From assembly GCA_040414485.1 (NCBI GenBank), contig JBEDUK010000027.1, forward strand, positions 9,208 to 73,207: a DNA stretch of 64,000 nt, read 5' to 3'. Below, piece by piece: positions 19,999-37,802 of the stretch. The notes beneath the pieces are model-generated. The model was not told the DNA's origin. It was given only the letters and a program-made list of their open reading frames with translations, and ran no database searches. Origin of the DNA: Actinomycetota bacterium. GTDB taxonomy: Bacteria > Actinomycetota > UBA4738. Every line of letters starts with the position of its first letter. Position 1 is the stretch's first letter. The translations under genes were made by a program, and so were the position numbers.

Positions 19999-21038
19999 GT
20001 TTCGGCCGTCTCGGCCGAGCCCGCCGTCTCGGCTGCGCCGGAGGAGTCGCCGACGCCGTCGTGCCCGTAGTACTCGAAGGCCGACATGGGCTTGCCCGTC
20101 CGGCTTCGCCACTCCCGCTCCGCGGGCTCCCCTTTGCCGAGCGCCCTCGCCATGGCCTTCACGTGCTCGGCGACCGCGCCGCAGCACGAGCCGATGTAGC
20201 CGACGCCGCCATCCTCTGCCGAGCCGGCGAAGGCAGCCATCTCGCCCCGCGTTACCTGCATGGGGTCGAGCGAATAGGGAAAGGCGTCGAACGCGGTGAA
20301 GTCGGGCCTGTCGTTCGTGGTCCGGTACGCGACCGGCTGCGCGGCCACGTGGCACGCGACCGCCCGTCGCATGTCGAGCGCGATCGGCATCTGCTGTTCG
20401 GGGCCGTTCAGGCAGTTCACACCCACCACGTCAGCGCCCGCCTGCTCGAGCCGAGCGGCGCACTCGGAGGGCGTGAGCCCTTCGTAGGAACGCGGTTCGG
20501 GCTGCTCGAAGCACATCGTGGCCATGACCGGGAGGGCGGTTCGCGTCGCCCGTTCGACGAACAGGAGCGCCTCGCCGAGCCACGAGAACGTCTCACCGAT
20601 CCAGAAGTCGGGCGGACCGGCCTCCAGTTGATCCGAGAGCTGACGGTCGAACAACCCGCGGACCCGGTCCGCCGACGCCGCGTCGTCCGGCTCGAACGCC
20701 CAGGTGAGCGACAGGTTGCCCGCGACCAGGGCGTCGCCCTCGGACGCGACCTTCCTGGCAACCTGCACGGCGGTCCGGTTGATGTCGTCGACCCGGTCGC
20801 CGAGCCCGACGGTGGCGAGCTTGTCGTCGCTGGCGTAGAAGGTCATGGTCTGGAGCACCTCGGCGCCGGCGAGCAGGAACTCGCGATGCAACTGGGCCAG
20901 GGCGTCGGGGTGTTCGATCACCACCTCCGGCGTGAACGGACCGGCCTGGACGTACCCACGCTTCTCCAGCTCGAGCAGATAGCCGCCGTCGCCCAGCACG
21001 GGACCGTCGGCCAGCCGCTCCAGGATGCCCTTCGCCAC
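19995..21038 (-). CDS. Homocysteine S-methyltransferase family, BHMT-like
   Basis: GILERL...GDGGY..ELEKRGYVQAGPFTPE...QLHREFL.AG...TFYAS closely follows the BHMT N-terminus. Zn ligands GVNC and GSCCG. Confidence 0.9.
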   Translation of the reverse strand: MAKGILERLADGPVLGDGGYLLELEKRGYVQAGPFTPEVVIEHPDALAQLHREFLLAGAEVLQTMTFYASDDKLATVGLGDRVDDINRTAVQVARKVASEGDALVAGNLSLTWAFEPDDAASADRVRGLFDRQLSDQLEAGPPDFWIGETFSWLGEALLFVERATRTALPVMATMCFEQPEPRSYEGLTPSECAARLEQAGADVVGVNCLNGPEQQMPIALDMRRAVACHVAAQPVAYRTTNDRPDFTAFDAFPYSLDPMQVTRGEMAAFAGSAEDGGVGYIGSCCGAVAEHVKAMARALGKGEPAEREWRSRTGKPMSAFEYYGHDGVGDSSGAAETAGSAETAET

Positions 21039-29019: not shown

Positions 29020-30087
29020 CTATCTGGCCGCCAGGCCCAGGTGCTGTGCGATGGCTGCCGCGTCGGCTCGGAGCGTCGCCGTCGGCTCGGCGTCGCGGTT
29101 GCCCCACTGCGGATCCTTCAGGCCGTGCCCCGTCAGGACGCACACGACCGTCGCGTCGGCAGGCAGAGAGCCGCGGCCGTGCAGCGTCAGCAATCCGGCC
29201 ACGGACGCGGCCGACGCGGGTTCGACGAACAGCCCTTCCTCGCGCATCAGTCGCCGCTGTGCCGCCAGGATCTCCTCGTCCGTCACGGCCGCGATCCCCC
29301 CACCGGAGTCGGCCGCCGCATGGAGGGCACCGTCCCACGACGCCGGGTTCCCGATCCGGATCGCCGTCGCGACCGTCTCCGGATCCGCGATCGGCGCACC
29401 GTGCACGAGCGGCGCGGCGCCCGCGGCTTGGAAGCCGAACATCCGCGGCGTCGCCGCGACCACCTCGTCGTCGGCGTATTCGCGGTAGCCCATCCAGTGG
29501 CTCGTGATGTTCCCGGCGTTCCCCACCGGCACCAGGTGCAGGTCGGGCGCCCGGCCGAGCATGTCGCACACTTCGAATGCCAGCGACTTCTGGCCCTGCA
29601 GCCGGTAGGGATTGACCGAATTGACCAGTGCCACGTCGAAGCGCGACGCGAGATCCCGCACCGCGCCGAAGGCCATGTCGAAATTCCCGTCCACCTCGAT
29701 CACCGCCGCGCCGTGCGCGAGCGTCTGCGCCATCTTTCCCGGCGCGATCCTGCCCTTCGGCACAATCACCGCGCAGGTCAGGCCGGCCTTCGCCGCATAG
29801 GCTGCCGCCGACGCGCTGGTGTTGCCGGTCGAGGCGCACACGACGGCGGCCGCCCCCTCCTCGCACGCCTTCGACACCGCCACGGTCATCCCACGGTCCT
29901 TGAACGAACCGGTCGGGTTCGCGCCTTCGAACTTCAGGTGGACCTCGCATCCGGTCTCGGCCGACAGGCGCTCGCTGAAGATGAGCGGCGTGCCGCCCTC
30001 GCGGAGCGTGACGACCGGCGTCGCGGCATCGACCGGGAGGCGGTCCGAATACTCGGTGATCACGCCGCGCCACTGGTGCGCCGTCAC
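29020..30087 (-). CDS. thrC: Threonine synthase
   Basis: EGANPTGSFKDRG (PLP lysine), CASTGNTSAS, PVGNAGN, ATAIRIGNP, LTGHGLKDP. Confidence 0.95.
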   Translation of the reverse strand: MTAHQWRGVITEYSDRLPVDAATPVVTLREGGTPLIFSERLSAETGCEVHLKFEGANPTGSFKDRGMTVAVSKACEEGAAAVVCASTGNTSASAAAYAAKAGLTCAVIVPKGRIAPGKMAQTLAHGAAVIEVDGNFDMAFGAVRDLASRFDVALVNSVNPYRLQGQKSLAFEVCDMLGRAPDLHLVPVGNAGNITSHWMGYREYADDEVVAATPRMFGFQAAGAAPLVHGAPIADPETVATAIRIGNPASWDGALHAAADSGGGIAAVTDEEILAAQRRLMREEGLFVEPASAASVAGLLTLHGRGSLPADATVVCVLTGHGLKDPQWGNRDAEPTATLRADAAAIAQHLGLAAR

Positions 30088-31373
30088 GGTTCGCCCGCCT
30101 CCACGCGGATGACCGACGCGACGCTTCGAACCACGTCCAGCCCGTCAAGCCGGTCGCGGCACGCGGCCAGCCGCCGCTCCGTGGCACGGTGCGTGATGAC
30201 CACGAGCTGCGCCTCGTCGCCGTGGCCGTCCTGCCACACCGACTTGATGGACACCTGATGTTCGGCGAACGCCGACGCGATCTCCGCGAGCACCCCTGGG
30301 CGATCGTCCACCCGAAGGAGGAAGTAGTACTGCGCGGGCAGGTCGTCCATGGGCAGGATCGCCCGGGATCGCGCCCGGGCGGCGCCCGCGGAACGCCCGC
30401 CGTGGCGCAGGTTCCGCGCCGCCTCGATCAGGTCACCCACCACGGACGTGGCCGTGGGGTCGCCGCCGGCTCCCCTGCCGGTGAGCATCAGGTCGCCGAC
30501 CCGCTCGCCGGTGATCAGGACGGCGTTGAAGCTGTGCCGAACGTCGGCCAGCGGATTGTCCAGCGGGATCATCGCGGGGTGGACCCGGACGGACACCGAT
30601 CCGTCCACGATCTCCGCGACGGCGAGCGGTTTGACGGCGTAACCGAGCCGGCGTGCATTCGCGATGTCCTCGGCGGTGACGCCCGCGATGCCCTCCCGAT
30701 GGACGTCGGCGGCCACGACCCGCGCGTCGAACGCGATCGCGGCGAGGATCGCGGCCTTCGCGGCGGCGTCGAACCCCTCGACGTCGGCGGTGGGGTCGGC
30801 CTCGGCGTAGCCGAGCTCCTGCGCCTCCGCGAGGGCGTCGGCAAGGCTCAGGCCGTCCTCCGTCATGCGGGTGAGGATGTAGTTCGTCGTCCCGTTCACG
30901 ATGCCCATCACCCGGACGATGCGCTCGCCGGCGAGGCTCTCCAGGAGCGGGCGGACCAGCGGGATGCCCCCGCCGACGCTCGCCTCGTAGAGCAGGTCCA
31001 CGTCGTTCGCGGCCGCCGCGTCCAGGAGGTCGGCGCCGTGCGTGGCCAGCAGCTCCTTGTTCGCCGTGACGACCGGCTTGCCCGACGCGAACGCCTTCAG
31101 GACCAGATCGTGCGCGGGGCGCACGCCGCCCATGACCTCCGCCACCACGTCGACGTCGCTCGCGCCGACCACGGCGTACGGGTCGTCGGTGAAGGCCGAT
31201 CCGGGAACCGGCACGTCCCGGTCGCGGCCGAGGTCACGCACCGCGACGCGGGTGACCTCCAGACGGACACCGGTTCGTAGTTCGATGTCCTGGGCATGGT
31301 CGTGGAGCATCCGCGCCACCGCCGCGCCGACGTTGCCGCACCCGAGGAGCCCCACGCGGACCGCATTCGTCAT
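30084..31373 (-). CDS. hom: Homoserine dehydrogenase with ACT domain
   Basis: GLLGCGNVG, VTANKELL, YEASVGGGIP, NGTTNYIL, EADPTADVEG, DRPGVLA. Confidence 0.96.
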   Translation of the reverse strand: MTNAVRVGLLGCGNVGAAVARMLHDHAQDIELRTGVRLEVTRVAVRDLGRDRDVPVPGSAFTDDPYAVVGASDVDVVAEVMGGVRPAHDLVLKAFASGKPVVTANKELLATHGADLLDAAAANDVDLLYEASVGGGIPLVRPLLESLAGERIVRVMGIVNGTTNYILTRMTEDGLSLADALAEAQELGYAEADPTADVEGFDAAAKAAILAAIAFDARVVAADVHREGIAGVTAEDIANARRLGYAVKPLAVAEIVDGSVSVRVHPAMIPLDNPLADVRHSFNAVLITGERVGDLMLTGRGAGGDPTATSVVGDLIEAARNLRHGGRSAGAARARSRAILPMDDLPAQYYFLLRVDDRPGVLAEIASAFAEHQVSIKSVWQDGHGDEAQLVVITHRATERRLAACRDRLDGLDVVRSVASVIRVEAGEP

Positions 31374-31620: not shown

Positions 31621-31863
31621 CTAGCCTCCGCCGGGCGGCCGCCCCGGCCGCGCCGGCCGCCCCGACGGCGTGCCGGGCGGCTCCCGCAGCCGGAGCCTCT
31701 CCGCCACGTCGATCTGGACGACCTTGCCGTCGTGGACCAGCACCTGGACGCTGCCGAACCGGATCCCTCGCAGCGCTTCGATCACGCGGAACGCGAGCGT
31801 CAGCTCGTCGCGCGTTATGTCCTTCGGGACTCCGGTGATGGGCGTCCCCTCCCGTCCAGCCAT
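31621..31863 (-). CDS. DUF2292/YezD (OscA-like) sulfur-starvation small protein
   Basis: IRFGSVQVLVHDGKVVQID.AERLR signature. GAGGGAG RBS. Located after cysA. Confidence 0.8.
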   Translation of the reverse strand: MAGREGTPITGVPKDITRDELTLAFRVIEALRGIRFGSVQVLVHDGKVVQIDVAERLRLREPPGTPSGRPARPGRPPGGG

Positions 31864-31900
31864 CGCGCGCGCTCCCTCGGCCAATGCCACCCCTCCCGTC

Positions 31901-33043
31901 CTACGCCACGATCGCCGGCTCCGCGGAGCCGCCGTCAGCCGATTCCGGGGCGGCGCCATTCGCGCCGACGCCCGCGTAATGCCCCGGCCGGTCCTCCACC
32001 TCGAACACCTTCGCGTTCCGAAGGTCGAGGTGGACGCGATCCCCTTCGCCCACCGGCGGCACCGGCAGCTCGTCGTTCGAGACGTCCGCCGTCAGGTCCT
32101 GGCCGTCGGTGAGCCGAAGCCGGAGCTTCGAGGCCCATCCGAGGTTCGTGATCCGTTCGATCACCGCACTGGTGGACCCCAGCCGCGTCTGCTCGCCGGC
32201 GATCGAGATCTGGTGCGGACGCACGTACGCGTGCACGCGCACACCCTCAGCCAGGTCGTCGCCGCCGTCGCCACTGGTCCATCCGTCGGCCACCCGGACC
32301 CGGCCGCCATCCATGCGGCCCTCAAGGACGTTCGCGGCGCCGACGAAGCCGGCGACGAATCGCGTCGCCGGGCGGTTGTAGACGTCGTCCGGCGTGCCGA
32401 CCTGCTCGACCCGCCCCTGGTGCATGACCACGACCTCGTTCGCCAGTTCGAGCGCCTCCTCCTGGTCGTGGGTGACCAGCAGGCTCGTCACGCCGAGCTC
32501 GCTGTGCAGGTCGTCCAGCCAGCGTCGAAGGTCCTGCCGGACCCGCGCGTCCAGCGCCCCGAACGGCTCGTCCAGCAACAGCACGGTCGGCCGGGGCGCC
32601 AGCGCCCGCGCCAGCGCGACCCGCTGGCGCTGCCCACCCGACAGCTGGTCCGGATACCGGTCGGCCCACGGCGCCAGTTGCACCAGCCTCAACAGTTCGT
32701 CAACCCGCTTTACCGTTTCATCCTTGCCGACCTTTCGCACGCGAAGGCCGAAGGCCACGTTCTGGCGCACGGTCATGTGACGGAACAGCGCGTAGTGCTG
32801 GAAGACGAACCCGACCCGCCGCTCCTGGACGGGCGCGTTCGTCTGCTCCTCGCCGGCCAGCGAGATGCGCCCGGTGTCGGGCCGTTCGAGCCCCGCGATC
32901 ATGCGGAGGACGGTCGACTTCCCCGATCCGGACGGCCCGAGGATCGCGGTGATCTTCCCCTCTTCGGCCTCGAAGGAGACGTCCGCCACTGCGCGGAACG
33001 ATCCGAAGCTCTTGTTCAACCCCTCGACGACGATCCCGGTCAT
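31901..33043 (-). CDS. cysA: Sulfate/thiosulfate ABC ATPase
   Basis: GPSGSGKST, FVFQHYALFRHMTV, LSGGQRQR, LLDEPFGALD, TOBE-like C-terminus. Confidence 0.93.
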   Translation of the reverse strand: MTGIVVEGLNKSFGSFRAVADVSFEAEEGKITAILGPSGSGKSTVLRMIAGLERPDTGRISLAGEEQTNAPVQERRVGFVFQHYALFRHMTVRQNVAFGLRVRKVGKDETVKRVDELLRLVQLAPWADRYPDQLSGGQRQRVALARALAPRPTVLLLDEPFGALDARVRQDLRRWLDDLHSELGVTSLLVTHDQEEALELANEVVVMHQGRVEQVGTPDDVYNRPATRFVAGFVGAANVLEGRMDGGRVRVADGWTSGDGGDDLAEGVRVHAYVRPHQISIAGEQTRLGSTSAVIERITNLGWASKLRLRLTDGQDLTADVSNDELPVPPVGEGDRVHLDLRNAKVFEVEDRPGHYAGVGANGAAPESADGGSAEPAIVA

Positions 33044-33924
33044 GACGCGAGCTTCCTTTCCCCTCGGTGCTTGAGGATCTCGATGCCGGACAGCAGCAGC
33101 ACCGAGACCAGGGCGAGGGTCGTGGCCACGATGTAGCCCTGCGCGTCCCTGCCCTCGTCGAACGCGCGCAGGATGAACAGGGTCGCGGTTTCGGTGTGGC
33201 CGGTGATCTGGCCGCTCACCACCAGCACCGCGCCGATCTCACCGATCGCCCGCGCCGTGGTCAGCGCGATGCCGTAGAGCAGCGCCCAACGGATGTTCGG
33301 CAGCGTCACCTTGAAGAACGTCTGCAGGCTGGAGGCACCGAGCGTCCGCGCGGCCTCCTCCTCCTCGGTCCCCAGCTCGCCGAGGAGCGGCGCCACCTCG
33401 CGGATCACGAACGGGATGCAGATGAAGATCGTGACGAGCACCATCGACGGGAGCGCGAAGATGATCTGGATGCCGTGCGCGTCGAACCACGGCTTGAACC
33501 ACCCCCCGGTGCCGAACATGAGCACGCACGCGAGCCCGACGATCACCGGCGAAACGGCGAGCGGGAGGTCGACGAACGCGCTGACCAGCGCGCGCCCGGG
33601 GAAGGGGTCGCGCGCGAGCATCAGGGCGACCACCACGCCCAGGACGGCGGTGACCACGACCGTGGTCGCGGTGATGATCAACGTCAGGTAGAACGCATGG
33701 CGGACGTCGGGCTGCGAGAACGTCTCGACCCACGCGTGCCCGCCGGCCTTGATCGCGGCCCAGATGATCCCGGCGAGCGGCGCGATGAGCAGCACCGCGG
33801 CGTAGACCAGCGCGATGCCCGTGAGGCTTCCGTGGATGAGGCGACGCCTGCGAAGGATCGCCGCATCGGATCGCGGGGCGGTCGCGTTCGGCGCCACGGG
33901 CGGAGCGGCCGTCCGCGCGCTCAT
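33040..33924 (-). CDS. cysW: Sulfate ABC permease CysW
   Basis: FVDLPLAVSPVIVG, PFVIREVAP, EEAARTLGA, ARAIGEIGAV. ATGA overlap with cysT. Confidence 0.9.
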   Translation of the reverse strand: MSARTAAPPVAPNATAPRSDAAILRRRRLIHGSLTGIALVYAAVLLIAPLAGIIWAAIKAGGHAWVETFSQPDVRHAFYLTLIITATTVVVTAVLGVVVALMLARDPFPGRALVSAFVDLPLAVSPVIVGLACVLMFGTGGWFKPWFDAHGIQIIFALPSMVLVTIFICIPFVIREVAPLLGELGTEEEEAARTLGASSLQTFFKVTLPNIRWALLYGIALTTARAIGEIGAVLVVSGQITGHTETATLFILRAFDEGRDAQGYIVATTLALVSVLLLSGIEILKHRGERKLAS

Positions 33925-34832
33925 TCCTCCGGCTCCTTCGCCGGTCGCCGCGCCACCAGCCGCTCGGTTACGAGCACCAGCACGAAGGACAGCCCGAACA
34001 GGAGCGAAGCGACCGCGGCGGCCTGCTCGGGCTTGAACTGGCTGATCAAGCCGAAGATGAACACGGGCGCGGTGAGCGTCTTGCCGATGATGTTGCCGGA
34101 GACGATCACGACGGCGCCGAACTCGCCGATCGCCCGGGCGAACACGAGGAGCATGCCCGCGGCGATCGGCGGCCGAAGATGCGGCAGGACGACGCTTCGT
34201 GCCGTCCGGATCCGTCCGGCGCCCAGGACGTGCGCGGCCTCCTCCTCGGACCGGTCCAGCTCGAGCATCACCGGCTGGACGGTCCGGACGACAAGCGGCA
34301 GCGTCACGAACAGCAGCGCGAGCAGGATCCCGGCCGGCGCGAAGATCACGTGGACGCCGTGCCTCTCCAGGAACGAACCGACCGGCGAGGCCGGGCCGTA
34401 CAACGCCCGCAGCATGACGCCGGTGACCAGCGTGGGAATGGCGAACGGGATGTCGACGATCGTCGACAGGGCCGCCCGCCCGGGGAACCGATAGCGAACC
34501 AGCACGTACGCGATCAGTGTTCCGAACACCCCGTTGATCACCGCGGTCAGCGCCGCGAGCACCAGCGTGAGCTCGACCGCCTTCCACGCGCCGGGCGCGG
34601 CGAACGCATCCTTCAGCGCACCGAAGCCGTTGCCGAAGCCGCGCGTGAGCACCGCGACGATCGGCAGCGCGACCATGACGGCCAGGTACAGCAGCGCCGT
34701 GGCGCGGAGCCCCCACCGGCCCCACGGGGGGCGCCGGCGGGGGCGGGGGGCCGCGCCCCCTCCCGCGCCGGGGTCGAGGCGCGGGAGGGGTGGGCGGGGA
34801 GGTGCGTCGAGTGAGCCGGTCCGTGTCGCCAT
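33921..34832 (-). CDS. cysT: Sulfate ABC permease CysT
   Basis: VDIPFAIPTLVTG, FVTLPLVVRTVQP, EEAAHVLGA, ARAIGEFG. Confidence 0.9.
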   Translation of the reverse strand: MATRTGSLDAPPRPPLPRLDPGAGGGAAPRPRRRPPWGRWGLRATALLYLAVMVALPIVAVLTRGFGNGFGALKDAFAAPGAWKAVELTLVLAALTAVINGVFGTLIAYVLVRYRFPGRAALSTIVDIPFAIPTLVTGVMLRALYGPASPVGSFLERHGVHVIFAPAGILLALLFVTLPLVVRTVQPVMLELDRSEEEAAHVLGAGRIRTARSVVLPHLRPPIAAGMLLVFARAIGEFGAVVIVSGNIIGKTLTAPVFIFGLISQFKPEQAAAVASLLFGLSFVLVLVTERLVARRPAKEPEE

Positions 34833-34840
34833 CGGTGCGG

Positions 34841-35899
34841 TCAGCCCTTCGCCGCCTTCAGGGCGTTCGTGAACACGCCGTTCGTGCCGAACACGTCCGT
34901 GTCGATCTTGTTCCAGCCGCCCAGGTCGGCCGCCGTGAAGGCGTCCTTCAGCGCGGGCAGGTCACCGTTCGACGCGACCGCCTGGGTCGGGTCGTTCGGG
35001 CGGAACAAGCCGGTGCCGGCGAAGATCGCCTGGGCGTCGGCCGAGTGCAGATACGCGACGAAGGCGTTTGCCACGTTCGTCACGCAGTCCGAGGCGGCGT
35101 TCTTGTCGACCACGACGGTCGGGTTCTGGATCAGGATCGTCGATGACGGATAGACGATCGTGTCGTCCTTGCCGGCCGCCTGGGCCAGCACGACCTGGTT
35201 CTCGTAGGTGATGGCGACATCGCCGTTGCCGGACTCGAAGTTCTTGAGCGAGTCGTTGGCGCTCTTGTCCATCACGGTGACGTTCCTGAAGATGTTCGTG
35301 AGCAGGGACTGGGCGCCGCCGGCGTCCGCGCTGTAACCGGAGACCTTGCCGCGGATCGCCGCGCCGTACGCGCCCAGGATGTTCCAGCGGGCTCCGCCGC
35401 TCTGAGCCGGGTCGGGCGTCAGGATCTGCGTGCCGGACTTCGTCAGATCGGCCCAGTCGTGGATGCCCTTCGGGTTGTTCGGCCTGACGTCGAACACGAC
35501 AGAGGTCGTGGACACGATGCTGCTGTCCGTCACCGGCCTGGTGATCAGGCCGGCCTTCTGGATCAGCTGGACGTCCGGGACCAGCGAGAGCGCCACCACG
35601 TCGGCCTTGAAGCCGTTGACCACGTTCTGGGCCTGGGTGGTGCTGCCGCCGAACGAGGTCTGGAAGATGACCTGCTGCCCGTCGTGGGCGTCCTTCCACT
35701 TCGACTGGAAGTCGGTGATCAGCTTGCCGTAGACGTCGTAGACGGTGCTGTAGGCGGCGAGCGTGATGACCGGGGAACTTGCCGGCTTGCAGGGCCCGCG
35801 GCGGGTGTTCGTCGCGGCGTTCGAGGTGCCGCAGGCGGCCGCGAGGCCGGCGATGGCCAGGCCCGCCACCAGGGCTTTCGGGATGGTGCGACGACGCAT
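34841..35899 (-). CDS. sbp: Sulfate-binding lipoprotein
   Basis: Lipobox LAAAC, SFGGSTTQAQNV, NPKGIHDWADL, TPDPAQSGGARWN, GDVAITYEN. Confidence 0.9.
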   Translation of the reverse strand: MRRRTIPKALVAGLAIAGLAAACGTSNAATNTRRGPCKPASSPVITLAAYSTVYDVYGKLITDFQSKWKDAHDGQQVIFQTSFGGSTTQAQNVVNGFKADVVALSLVPDVQLIQKAGLITRPVTDSSIVSTTSVVFDVRPNNPKGIHDWADLTKSGTQILTPDPAQSGGARWNILGAYGAAIRGKVSGYSADAGGAQSLLTNIFRNVTVMDKSANDSLKNFESGNGDVAITYENQVVLAQAAGKDDTIVYPSSTILIQNPTVVVDKNAASDCVTNVANAFVAYLHSADAQAIFAGTGLFRPNDPTQAVASNGDLPALKDAFTAADLGGWNKIDTDVFGTNGVFTNALKAAKG

Positions 35900-35967
35900 C
35901 CGGGGACTCCTCCCTTCGAAGCACGAGCCCGCGCGTCACAGCGCCGCAGGTCGTGGGTCGGTGGATC

Positions 35968-36073
35968 GGTCTCCGGGTGGTCCGGTCAACCGAAGGACTT
36001 CGGGATGGTCTCCGGTGGTCCGGTCAACCGTCGGTGGTGGAATCTGCCGGTCTCCGGGTGTTCCGGTCGATCG
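35968..36073. repeat. Three 24-25 nt direct repeats in the sulfate-operon leader
   Basis: ggtctccgggtggtccggtcaaccg (35968-35992), ggtctccggtggtccggtcaaccg (36007-36030), ggtctccgggtgttccggtcgatcg (36049-36073); unique spacers of 14 and 18 nt. Confidence 0.9.
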
Positions 36074-36081
36074 GTGCGCCA

Positions 36082-36112
36082 ACTGTATACGAGTCACTCC
36101 GCGGGGTGTCAA
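36082..36112 (-). promoter_or_regulatory. Sigma70/SigA-type promoter of the sulfate operon
   Basis: TTGACA (36112-36107), 17 nt, TATACA; an overlapping TACAGT -10 is also possible. Confidence 0.75.
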
Positions 36113-36159
36113 CGATCCTTCGGCGGAATCACATGTTCGGCACCGCGCTGCGGGCCGTC

Positions 36160-36894
36160 CTACCGGCCGAGAACGACCGGGCTTCCAAGGAGGCCGACCA
36201 CCAGCGCCACCTGTCCGACGTGATAGGTCACCATGATCGCGATCGGTCCGCCGCGGATGGTCCGGACGAAGCGCGTCCATCCGATCAGCGCGTCGGAGGT
36301 CACGAACAGGACGGCCCCGGCGATCGCGAACGCGCGACCCTGCGCCGACCACTCGGGCCTGCCGAGGGTGGCGATGGCGCTCGCGGCCATGGCGCTGATC
36401 GCGACGACGTAGAGGGTGACGGGGACGACGAGTTCGCGCCGCCGCTGACGCAGGATCCCCGCCCGCAGGCCGCGGAACAGCGGAACCGTCACGGCCAGGG
36501 TGACGGCGGCGCCGACCAGCAACGGAAGCAGGGGCGGCGATGTCGTGTTGAACGCGGCGACGTAGGCGAGGTGCGCGAAGAGGAACGACGCGAGGCCCGC
36601 GACGAACAGATCCTTCGGCAGCATGAGGAACACGTCGCCGGCCAGCGACAGGCAGAGCGCGGCGAGGGTGAACGCCCAGCGCGCATCGGGGAGCGGCGGT
36701 CGCCGGTAGGCGACCGCCGCGGCGATGAGCACCATGAGGGTGAGCGGCTTGCAGACGTACTCGACGCGCTTCGCGTGGCGTGCGACCGCCATCCAGTCGC
36801 ATGCCGCCACCACGAGCGAGGCGACGACAAGCGCGGTGCCGGTGCTCAGCGCGGCCCGTCCAGGCGTTCGCGGAGCGTCATCGTCACGGACCAC
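36160..36894 (-). CDS. Lysoplasmalogenase / YhhN family membrane protein
   Basis: KPLTL, LSLAGDVFL, GLASFLFAHLAY, LFVTSD, TYHVGQ. Start uncertain (ORF track gives 36954). Confidence 0.85.
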   Translation of the reverse strand: MVRDDDAPRTPGRAALSTGTALVVASLVVAACDWMAVARHAKRVEYVCKPLTLMVLIAAAVAYRRPPLPDARWAFTLAALCLSLAGDVFLMLPKDLFVAGLASFLFAHLAYVAAFNTTSPPLLPLLVGAAVTLAVTVPLFRGLRAGILRQRRRELVVPVTLYVVAISAMAASAIATLGRPEWSAQGRAFAIAGAVLFVTSDALIGWTRFVRTIRGGPIAIMVTYHVGQVALVVGLLGSPVVLGR

Positions 36895-36986
36895 AGGATC
36901 CAGCGGTTCACCGCGGGATGATCGCATGGCCCGTTTCAGGCTCGGAGTGGGCAACAGCCGGCGCGTCGGGTAGAACTTGCGGTCTC

Positions 36987-37802
36987 ATGGCGAGCGAATC
37001 CAGCATCCGGGACGAGGTCGTAAAGCGACTTTACCAAGTGCCGCCGGAGCAGTTCGTCGCCGAGCGGACCCGGTTGGTGAAGGAGTCCAAGGACGCCGGT
37101 GAACGCGACCAGGCGGCCGCGCTCGGTCGGCTTCGCCGGCCCGCCGCGCCGGCCTGGGCGCTGGCGCGGATCGCGGCCGATGATCCCGACGCCGTCGATG
37201 AGTTGCTCGCGGCGAACTCGCGTCTCCGTGACGCGATGGCCGGCGGCGGACGGGTTGGCGGCGAGCGCTTCCGTCAGGCGTCCGACGAACGCCTGCGTGT
37301 CGTCGCGCGACTCACCGACCGCGCGGGCAAGGTCCTCGAGGAGGCCGGCATCAGCGCCGGGCGGCCGGTTCTCGAACGGATCGAGACCACCCTGATGGCG
37401 ACGGCGACCGACGACGCCGGCGCGGACCTGCTACGACGCGGGGTGCTCGACCACGACCTGGCGGCCGGCGGGTTCGCGGACCTGCTCGGGGGGGCCGAAT
37501 CCACCGTCTCCGAGTCCCCGCCGGGCGGCGCCGGCGCCAAGAAGGACGCGGACGGCGCCGTCAGCAGGAAGCGCCGCGAGCGGCTCGAGCGAGAAGCGAG
37601 GGAGCGGCAGGACGAGGCACGGGCCGCCGAGGATGCGGCGGCGGCCGCCGAGCGCGACGCCCAGGTGGCCCAGCGGGCAGCGGAGGCGGCCGTCAAGGCC
37701 GCCTCCGTCAAGCGCAAGGACGCCGAGCGGCTGGCGAAGGACGCCTCGCGGGCCCACGAGCGGGCGCGAACCGCGGTCGACCGTCTGGAGGCCGAGAGCT
37801 AG
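36987..37802 (+). CDS. Hypothetical alpha-helical / coiled-coil protein
   Basis: LYQVPPEQFVAER...LRRPAAPAWAL N-terminal domain and an Ala/Glu/Arg-rich coiled-coil tail. Confidence 0.75.
   Translation: MASESSIRDEVVKRLYQVPPEQFVAERTRLVKESKDAGERDQAAALGRLRRPAAPAWALARIAADDPDAVDELLAANSRLRDAMAGGGRVGGERFRQASDERLRVVARLTDRAGKVLEEAGISAGRPVLERIETTLMATATDDAGADLLRRGVLDHDLAAGGFADLLGGAESTVSESPPGGAGAKKDADGAVSRKRRERLEREARERQDEARAAEDAAAAAERDAQVAQRAAEAAVKAASVKRKDAERLAKDASRAHERARTAVDRLEAES

Follow-up and report, generated by a model that had tools for sequence, protein, structure and literature searches.

Three near-identical repeats lie in the leader of a sulfate ABC transporter operon in an actinobacterial genome, and we asked what these repeats are and whether they regulate the downstream genes. 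The window, the whole 64,000-nucleotide stretch of DNA that was analyzed, carries the repeats on the minus strand between a yhhN-like gene (36160-36954) and sbp (34841-35899). The strict pattern GACCGG-N3-6-CCGGAGACC matched at 35968-35987, 36007-36025 and 36049-36068, with start-to-start spacings of 39 and 42 nt. No match was found in 100 dinucleotide shuffles of the window. Further, these were the only three matches in the whole 3.58-Mb, 70% GC genome, and a reversed-pattern control gave none. Thus, the repeats reported in the sequence-only reading are real and lie where it placed them.

We next examined the surroundings of the repeats. A putative promoter, which was also described in the sequence-only reading, comprises TTGACA (36112-36107), a 17-nt spacer and TATACA (36089-36084; alternatively TACAGT at 36087-36082) on the minus strand, and precedes the first unit by about 10 nt. 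A simple consensus scan did not report this site because its -10 rule requires a terminal T. However, a TTGACA-spaced -10 was present just upstream of the first hairpin in orthologous leaders. The Shine-Dalgarno (SD) sequence GGGAGGAG and the ATG of sbp occupy 35897-35914, with the ATG at 35899, which gives a leader of about 178 nt. The predicted operon on the minus strand starts with sbp, encoding a sulfate ABC substrate-binding protein (Pfam SBP_bac_11, 6e-32; NCBIfam TIGR00971, 195 bits). It continues with a cysT-like permease gene (33921-34832; Pfam BPD_transp_1), a cysW-like permease gene (33040-33924; Pfam BPD_transp_1), the ATG of which at 33924 overlaps the cysT stop codon, and the ATPase gene cysA (31901-33043; Pfam ABC_tran, TOBE_2 and CysA_C_terminal). 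The last gene (31621-31884) has a start codon with an SD sequence and encodes an 87-aa protein of the DUF2292 family, which is named OscA in NCBIfam ("sulfur starvation response protein") and YezD in Bacillus subtilis. This protein and a second copy encoded in the genome matched Pfam PF10055 at 54.6 and 54.5 bits, above the 22-bit cut-off. In contrast, the score against the NCBIfam sulfur_OscA model (NF033785) was 43 bits, below its 85-bit equivalog cut-off. The protein therefore belongs to the same Pfam family but is not the equivalog that the NCBIfam model defines.

To determine whether the leader belongs to a known class of regulatory RNA, we compared it with Rfam 15. No relevant family matched window positions 35000-37000 at E<=10, and eight motif-carrying loci from four phyla gave only tRNAs at E<=1. 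SAM-I to SAM-VI, T-box and mini-ykkC families were therefore not detected, nor was sul1, if it is included in Rfam 15. This result agrees with the sequence-only reading, which saw no SAM-riboswitch core. S-box and T-box elements and the mycobacterial poly-Cys leaderless uORF attenuators provide leader-level control of sulfur assimilation genes in Gram-positive bacteria. However, three-frame translation of the leader revealed no Cys- or Met-rich ORF, no run of Cys codons and no suitable ORF at the transcription start, as the sequence-only reading had also concluded. Literature searches of 8.4 million full texts on sulfate and cysteine riboswitch candidates, orphan riboswitches, ssu leader termination and DUF2292/YezD/OscA, and under any gene-motif name that we could think of, found no description of this element. 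The candidate riboswitch motifs sul1 and dauA (PMC5737381; PMC11109978) are also orphan RNAs upstream of sulfate-transporter-type genes, but dauA is described as a three-stem junction in Streptomyces upstream of a STAS-domain protein gene, and neither motif has the hairpin described below.

The sequence-only reading had noted that each unit can fold a small CCGG/CCGG hairpin. Comparison of orthologous sbp leaders from relatives showed that this description was incomplete, because each unit extends further as 5'-[outer stem, 4-7 nt]-GA-CCGG-[loop, 4-5 nt]-CCGG-A-[outer stem]-3'. From outside in, the unit comprises an outer stem of free sequence, a U.G or C-G closing pair in which the 3' G is invariant, an asymmetric GA/A internal loop, a near-invariant CCGG/CCGG inner stem and a loop that usually starts with A. 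In the window, hairpin H1 (36047-36074) reads CCGAUC-GA-CCGG-AACAC-CCGG-A-GACCGG with one A.C mismatch in the outer stem, H2 (36005-36031) reads (AC)GGUU-GA-CCGG-ACCA-CCGG-A-GACC(AU), and the distal H3 (35966-35993) reads UCGGUU-GA-CCGG-ACCAC-CCGG-A-GACCGA. These 27-28-nt units scored 25.5, 40.8 and 35.7 bits, respectively, with a covariance model of the hairpin, and each folded alone as drawn at -10.5, -11.6 and -14.7 kcal/mol. The same-genus orthologue of H1 has a perfect CCGGUC/GACCGG outer stem. H3 was retained in the centroid fold of the whole leader and is orthologous to the most conserved, ribosome-binding site (RBS)-proximal hairpin of the order. A GC-rich stem-loop between H3 and the RBS (35917-35960) was present in both the minimum free energy (MFE) and the centroid fold.

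The outer-stem sequence differed between copies and genomes but remained complementary, for example GGUU/GACC, GAUC/GAUC, GCUC/GAGC, CGCC/GGCG, GGCU/GGCC and GACC/GGUC, and the inner stem showed the compensatory variants CCAG/CUGG and CCUG/CAGG. To quantify this covariation, we scored a model-derived alignment of 138 hits, 99 of them distinct. In the 99 distinct hairpins, 88% of cells formed a standard pair, compared with 23-54% when the 3' partners were slid. Further, 130 cells were changed on both sides, compared with 45+-8 in shuffles (0 of 500 as high), and 7 of 10 pairs showed double-sided changes, compared with a mean of 5.8 in shuffles (3 of 500 as high). An earlier 42-sequence alignment gave the same picture. 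Note that the covariance-model seed came from a fixed search pattern and that the model-derived alignment leans toward the modeled structure. However, an extraction that did not require outer-stem pairing still found complementary outer stems almost everywhere.

These results bear on the possibility that the repeats are DNA operators for a sulfur-responsive transcription factor acting as a roadblock or repressor downstream of the promoter. In the window, three direct repeats lie about four helical turns apart (39 and 42 bp) just downstream of the -10, which speaks for such a model. However, the outer-stem sequence changes freely while remaining complementary, the spacing between copies ranges from about 37 to 100 nt and the copy number from one to three, and some copies lie after stop codons inside operons. 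Further, every copy inspected is on the sense strand of the downstream gene, and one strand has an alternative RNA partner that changes in step with it, as described below. We therefore consider a DNA operator very unlikely.

We next determined how the hairpin is distributed. In the genome containing the window, the covariance model found the three sbp copies and one further leader, at positions 20469-20495 of another contig (C66). That locus has a promoter followed by the hairpin GCAGCU-GA-CCAG-UCAA-CUGG-A-GGCCGC, the 3' strand of which is the 5' arm of a GC-rich terminator with a U-tract, and it lies upstream of two TauE/SafE permease genes and the second DUF2292 gene. Other weak hits were in coding regions. 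A relaxed structural pattern was dominated by GC-rich background, with 16 hits compared with 11 in the reversed-genome control, and its two best extra hits, at the recR stop codon and inside rsmH, were rejected. A pattern with 14 specified bases was likewise too noisy across the order.

In the same order, 163 of 294 genomes had a covariance-model hit at E<=5e-4, although most genomes are metagenome-assembled genomes (MAGs) and the E-values of the model are rough. The sampled hits were sbp leaders with one to three hairpins, or terminator-type leaders upstream of SsuA-like (NMT1) binding proteins, oscA, a membrane protein and a rhodanese-like gene named by eye only. In an even sample of 391 genomes of the phylum, true hits occurred only in this order and in one further family. 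Nine other hits lay inside genes, which sets the false-positive rate at about 2.5% of genomes.

An exact-pattern scan of 185,579 species genomes was noisy in part, as about half of its 102 loci were chance hits in coding regions of GC-rich genomes such as Klenkia, Streptomyces and Nocardioides. However, the scan also recovered the same 23-nt core in AT-rich genomes, in which chance is negligible. The hairpin preceded metY in Paenibacillus, occurred as two copies within a yezD - PNPOx-like - nitrogenase-like operon in Lachnospiraceae, and preceded an ABC permease gene (Pfam BPD_transp_1; SsuC-like by eye) in Treponema, whereas no confident downstream gene was identified in Haloferula. Of 136 Paenibacillaceae genomes, 68 had hits, which lay upstream of sbp, an SsuE-like FMN reductase, TauD, luciferase-like monooxygenases, metY, an amidohydrolase and an MFS transporter. 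The element occurs in culturable Paenibacillus and Clostridium strains. The common theme of the downstream genes is sulfur acquisition. The sequence-only reading had specified that absence from orthologous leaders or scattering in the genome would count against it, and neither was observed. The possibility that the repeats are chance or selfish (REP-like) elements without a regulatory role is refuted by this conservation across an order and four phyla in the same gene context, even though GC-rich genomes carry many short CCGG-containing hairpins.

To examine how the hairpin might act, we asked whether its strands have alternative partners. In 23 of 27 Paenibacillaceae hairpins and in 7 of 9 candidates from Lachnospiraceae, Treponema and Haloferula, the sequence GG-A-[outer stem 3' strand] is also the 5' arm of a canonical intrinsic terminator. 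The actinobacterial terminator-type leaders do the same with GGCCGC...GCGGCC stems, although their U-tracts were often too short for our criterion. In contrast, in about 40 of 48 actinobacterial sbp leaders, the 5' flank plus 5' half of the RBS-proximal hairpin (CCUUUCGGUUGACCGG) is complementary over up to 16 bp to the region ending in the SD (CCGGUCGAUCGAAAGG-AG). The mean duplex energy was -21.6 kcal/mol, compared with -11.3 for shuffles (median z -4.2), and there were matched changes such as CCUUCG/CGAAGG.

In the leader of the window, the pairing of the 5' half of H3 with the SD region was no better than chance, and the fold of the whole leader was not unusually stable (z -1.3). Instead, the 3' half of H2 plus its 3' flank (CCGGAGACCAUCCCGAAGUC; 35996-36015, minus strand) is complementary to the SD/start region and is the candidate anti-SD strand in this genus. 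The duplex energy was -21.9 kcal/mol, compared with -12.9+-3.1 for 300 shuffles (none as good), and the same-genus leader gave -24.7, compared with -13.5+-3.3, despite sequence differences. This pairing also appeared in the MFE fold of the whole leader.

Taken together, the analysis supports the sequence-only interpretation of an array of sites for a sulfur-responsive regulator or a new cis-regulatory RNA, in its RNA-level versions, while leaving both a protein and a small ligand as candidate partners. The structure of the hairpin, its conservation, the competing structures, the gene associations and the co-distribution with OscA described below are direct results of the sequence comparisons, whereas transcription of the leader from the putative promoter, the sign of regulation in vivo, the sulfur signal and the binding of OscA or of a ligand are inferences. 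We are highly confident that the unit is a functional cis-regulatory RNA hairpin, and consider it likely that the folded hairpin is the ON state. In this view, the folded hairpin leaves the gene expressible in all three designs. The competing helix is the more stable, so something would have to hold the hairpin closed, probably during transcription, to allow translation or read-through. Because the controlled genes are scavenging genes, the holder should be present under sulfur limitation. We suggest that this is a trans factor, most likely OscA, acting as an antiterminator or anti-sequestrator, and that the extra hairpins would add avidity. We assign this overall reading a probability of roughly 0.5, and the identification of OscA as the partner is itself tentative.

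The proposal of OscA rests on co-distribution. In the order, 158 genomes had both the hairpin and DUF2292, 5 had the hairpin only, 24 had DUF2292 only and 107 had neither (odds ratio 141, p 3e-49, not corrected for phylogeny). The five hairpin-only genomes are incomplete MAGs or probable false hits. In the phylum sample of 391 genomes, DUF2292 was present in only 24, and all 18 true hairpin genomes were among them. In Paenibacillaceae, 68 of 68 hairpin genomes had DUF2292, but the family is near-universal there (131 of 136), and about half of the genomes showed no hairpin at our thresholds. Within the family to which the window belongs, genomes in which the sbp leader carries an AT-rich element instead of the hairpin also lacked DUF2292. 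Further, the gene is physically adjacent in all four phyla. In Paenibacillaceae and Lachnospiraceae, it is the first cistron, followed by hairpin and terminator, and no hairpin lies upstream of it. In the actinobacterial genomes, it is divergent from, directly upstream of, or inside the regulated operons, in the last case as the final gene.

The layouts oscA-hairpin-terminator-ssuE in Paenibacillaceae and yezD-hairpin-terminator in Lachnospiraceae mirror the hut operon of B. subtilis, in which the small regulator gene hutP is the first cistron and is followed by an intercistronic terminator that HutP overrides by binding the RNA. However, HutP binds spaced UAG triplets as a hexamer and needs histidine and Mg2+, whereas the putative site here is a structured hairpin and OscA is unrelated to HutP in sequence. 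The element also resembles the RAT antiterminators of BglG, SacY and LicT, in which a hairpin of roughly 27-29 nt with an internal loop overlaps the 5' arm of an intrinsic terminator and is held closed by a protein to give read-through. Such overlap was found in the Paenibacillaceae and other leaders counted above and at the C66 locus. No PRD/CAT-domain protein was noticed by inspection of the loci. The RAT systems serve sugar use rather than sulfur scavenging, and in Actinomycetota the present hairpin would also control SD access. The anatomy did not fit ANTAR-regulated dual-hairpin leaders, which have two adjacent hairpins with hexaloops carrying A at position 1 and G at position 4, the second overlapping a terminator. 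Overlap with a terminator was found, but the loops here are 4-5 nt (up to 7) without that pattern, and single hairpins are common. A kink-turn bound by L7Ae or YbxF requires a 3-nt bulge followed by tandem sheared G.A/A.G pairs, whereas the internal loop here is only 2+1 nt (GA opposite A), in which no tandem G.A pair is possible.

Several findings count against OscA as an RNA-binding partner. AlphaFold2 predicted a helix plus a beta-hairpin at pLDDT 73 without a recognizable RNA-binding fold, Foldseek against the PDB found no significant structural relative, and no hit was obtained against PDB sequences. Further, the N-terminal tail is acidic. Another trans factor, such as a conserved housekeeping RNA-binding protein, a moonlighting sulfur enzyme or a small RNA, might bind the hairpin while OscA merely travels with the regulon, because the sequence-specific helical core (C-G, C-G, the GA/A loop and an invariant GGAG) looks like a macromolecule recognition site and nothing directly ties OscA to RNA. 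However, no other gene was seen to accompany the hairpin across the four phyla in the loci inspected by eye rather than by a systematic phylogenetic-profile screen, and we regard this alternative as unlikely.

The main rival is a minimal metabolite- or ion-sensing riboswitch, in which a ligand that accumulates under sulfur limitation would bind the GA/A loop and stabilize the hairpin. O-acetylserine, N-acetylserine and O-acetylhomoserine are guesses for such a ligand. The element has the classic riboswitch architecture of a conserved core, covarying stems and expression platforms of two kinds, the sulfur-acquisition gene context is coherent across phyla, and tandem copies occur, as in the glycine and guanidine-II riboswitches. 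In addition, in several actinobacterial loci oscA itself sits behind a hairpin plus terminator, and the co-distribution is equally expected if oscA is simply the most faithful member of a riboswitch regulon. However, only 3-4 conserved unpaired nucleotides are available to build a pocket, which would be smaller than any natural single-hairpin aptamer known to us, and the loops vary outside Actinomycetota. The near-absolute dependence on the presence of OscA, including regulatory swaps within one family, also goes beyond what a riboswitch needs. The guanidine-II (mini-ykkC) riboswitch likewise consists of very small GC-rich hairpins in tandem with a variable linker and is an ON switch in which the 3' hairpin competes with SD sequestration. 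It is, however, defined by ACGR tetraloops that kiss, whereas the loops are ACCA, ACCAC and AACAC here and AAAA, AUUU, UACC, ACAU and others elsewhere. A single copy suffices in many leaders, so that a ligand-bridged hairpin dimer of the guanidine-II type is not required, and the downstream genes are sulfur-acquisition genes rather than guanidine exporters or carboxylases. A small-ligand riboswitch therefore remains a serious rival, although on present evidence we consider it doubtful.

Control of sulfur assimilation at the RNA level is known only through SAM riboswitches, T-boxes and, in mycobacteria, Cys-rich uORFs, and to our knowledge no RNA element responding to sulfate or cysteine-precursor limitation has been described. 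The hairpin would define a widespread, undescribed leader switch for sulfate, sulfonate, taurine and organosulfur scavenging genes, working like the protein-dependent antiterminators or the small tandem-hairpin riboswitches but lacking defining features of those families that could be compared. If OscA is the partner, DUF2292 would found a new family of hairpin-binding antiterminators and translation activators. If a metabolite such as O-acetylserine is sensed directly, which is less likely, the hairpin would be the smallest natural single-hairpin riboswitch and the first riboswitch class reporting inorganic-sulfur or cysteine-precursor status. The former reading would offer a testable function for DUF2292/OscA/YezD, a small protein that is induced by sulfur starvation and the role of which has stayed unknown; B. 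subtilis yezD is reported as CymR- and Spx-repressed and uncharacterized (PMC3479203). Many Paenibacillus leaders also carried ATAGGAAT-like sequences near their promoters, which resemble CymR boxes and, if they are such boxes, would suggest, speculatively, two-layer control and a CymR -> OscA -> hairpin feed-forward loop.

A second hairpin-controlled operon was found in the window's own genome (contig C66:16500-20800; locus L221). This operon consists of a promoter, a CCAG/CUGG-type hairpin overlapping a terminator, two TauE/SafE permease genes and a second DUF2292 paralogue. Within the window, a homoserine dehydrogenase gene (30084-31373; PF00742 with an ACT domain) and a gene for a PALP-family enzyme, probably threonine synthase (29020-30087), lie directly downstream of oscA on the same (minus) strand, together spanning 29020-31373. 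Further, a weak hit to the ZTP riboswitch (22 bits compared with a gathering score of 39; E = 0.69) was detected at 35130-35192 on the plus strand, inside the sbp coding region but on the opposite strand, and we consider this hit to be due to chance.

In contrast, the sbp leaders of several genomes of the same family and the same order (loci L007, L008, L010, L011, L012, L015 and L016) lacked the hairpin, and these genomes also lacked DUF2292. Instead, these leaders carried an AT-rich element of about 45 nt immediately after the promoter (for example AACTCGATCAACATAGTGTTGTCAATCAACTCAGTAGAC). This element resembles a protein operator, and the regulatory system therefore appears to have been swapped within one family. 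In Amycolatopsis spp. (loci L021, L022, L041, L047, L073, L093, L113 and L120), a conserved intergenic GGTTGACCGGGGTAACCGGAGACC was followed by a complementary GGAGGTCTCC upstream of a Peripla_BP_4 binding-protein gene. This arrangement could represent a diverged member of the motif family in a cultured actinomycete.

In Anaerocolumna, Clostridium sp. KNHs205 and Lachnoclostridium (loci L026, L039 and L059), the operon was arranged in the order promoter, yezD/DUF2292, hairpin plus terminator, PNPOx-like gene, hairpin plus terminator, and nitrogenase-like (Oxidored_nitro) genes, which may represent an organosulfur-salvage reductase system under the control of the same switch. Further, ATAGGAAT-like sequences recurred near the promoters of hairpin-controlled operons and of oscA in loci L133, L134 and L039 and in the Paenibacillaceae loci L151-L178. 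These sequences appear to resemble the CymR box of B. subtilis, which, if so, would hint at dual control at the DNA and RNA levels. Two tandem terminator-type hairpins were also found at positions 2587-2647 of another locus carrying the motif (L070), upstream of a gene that, as judged by eye only, is rhodanese-like (thiosulfate sulfurtransferase).
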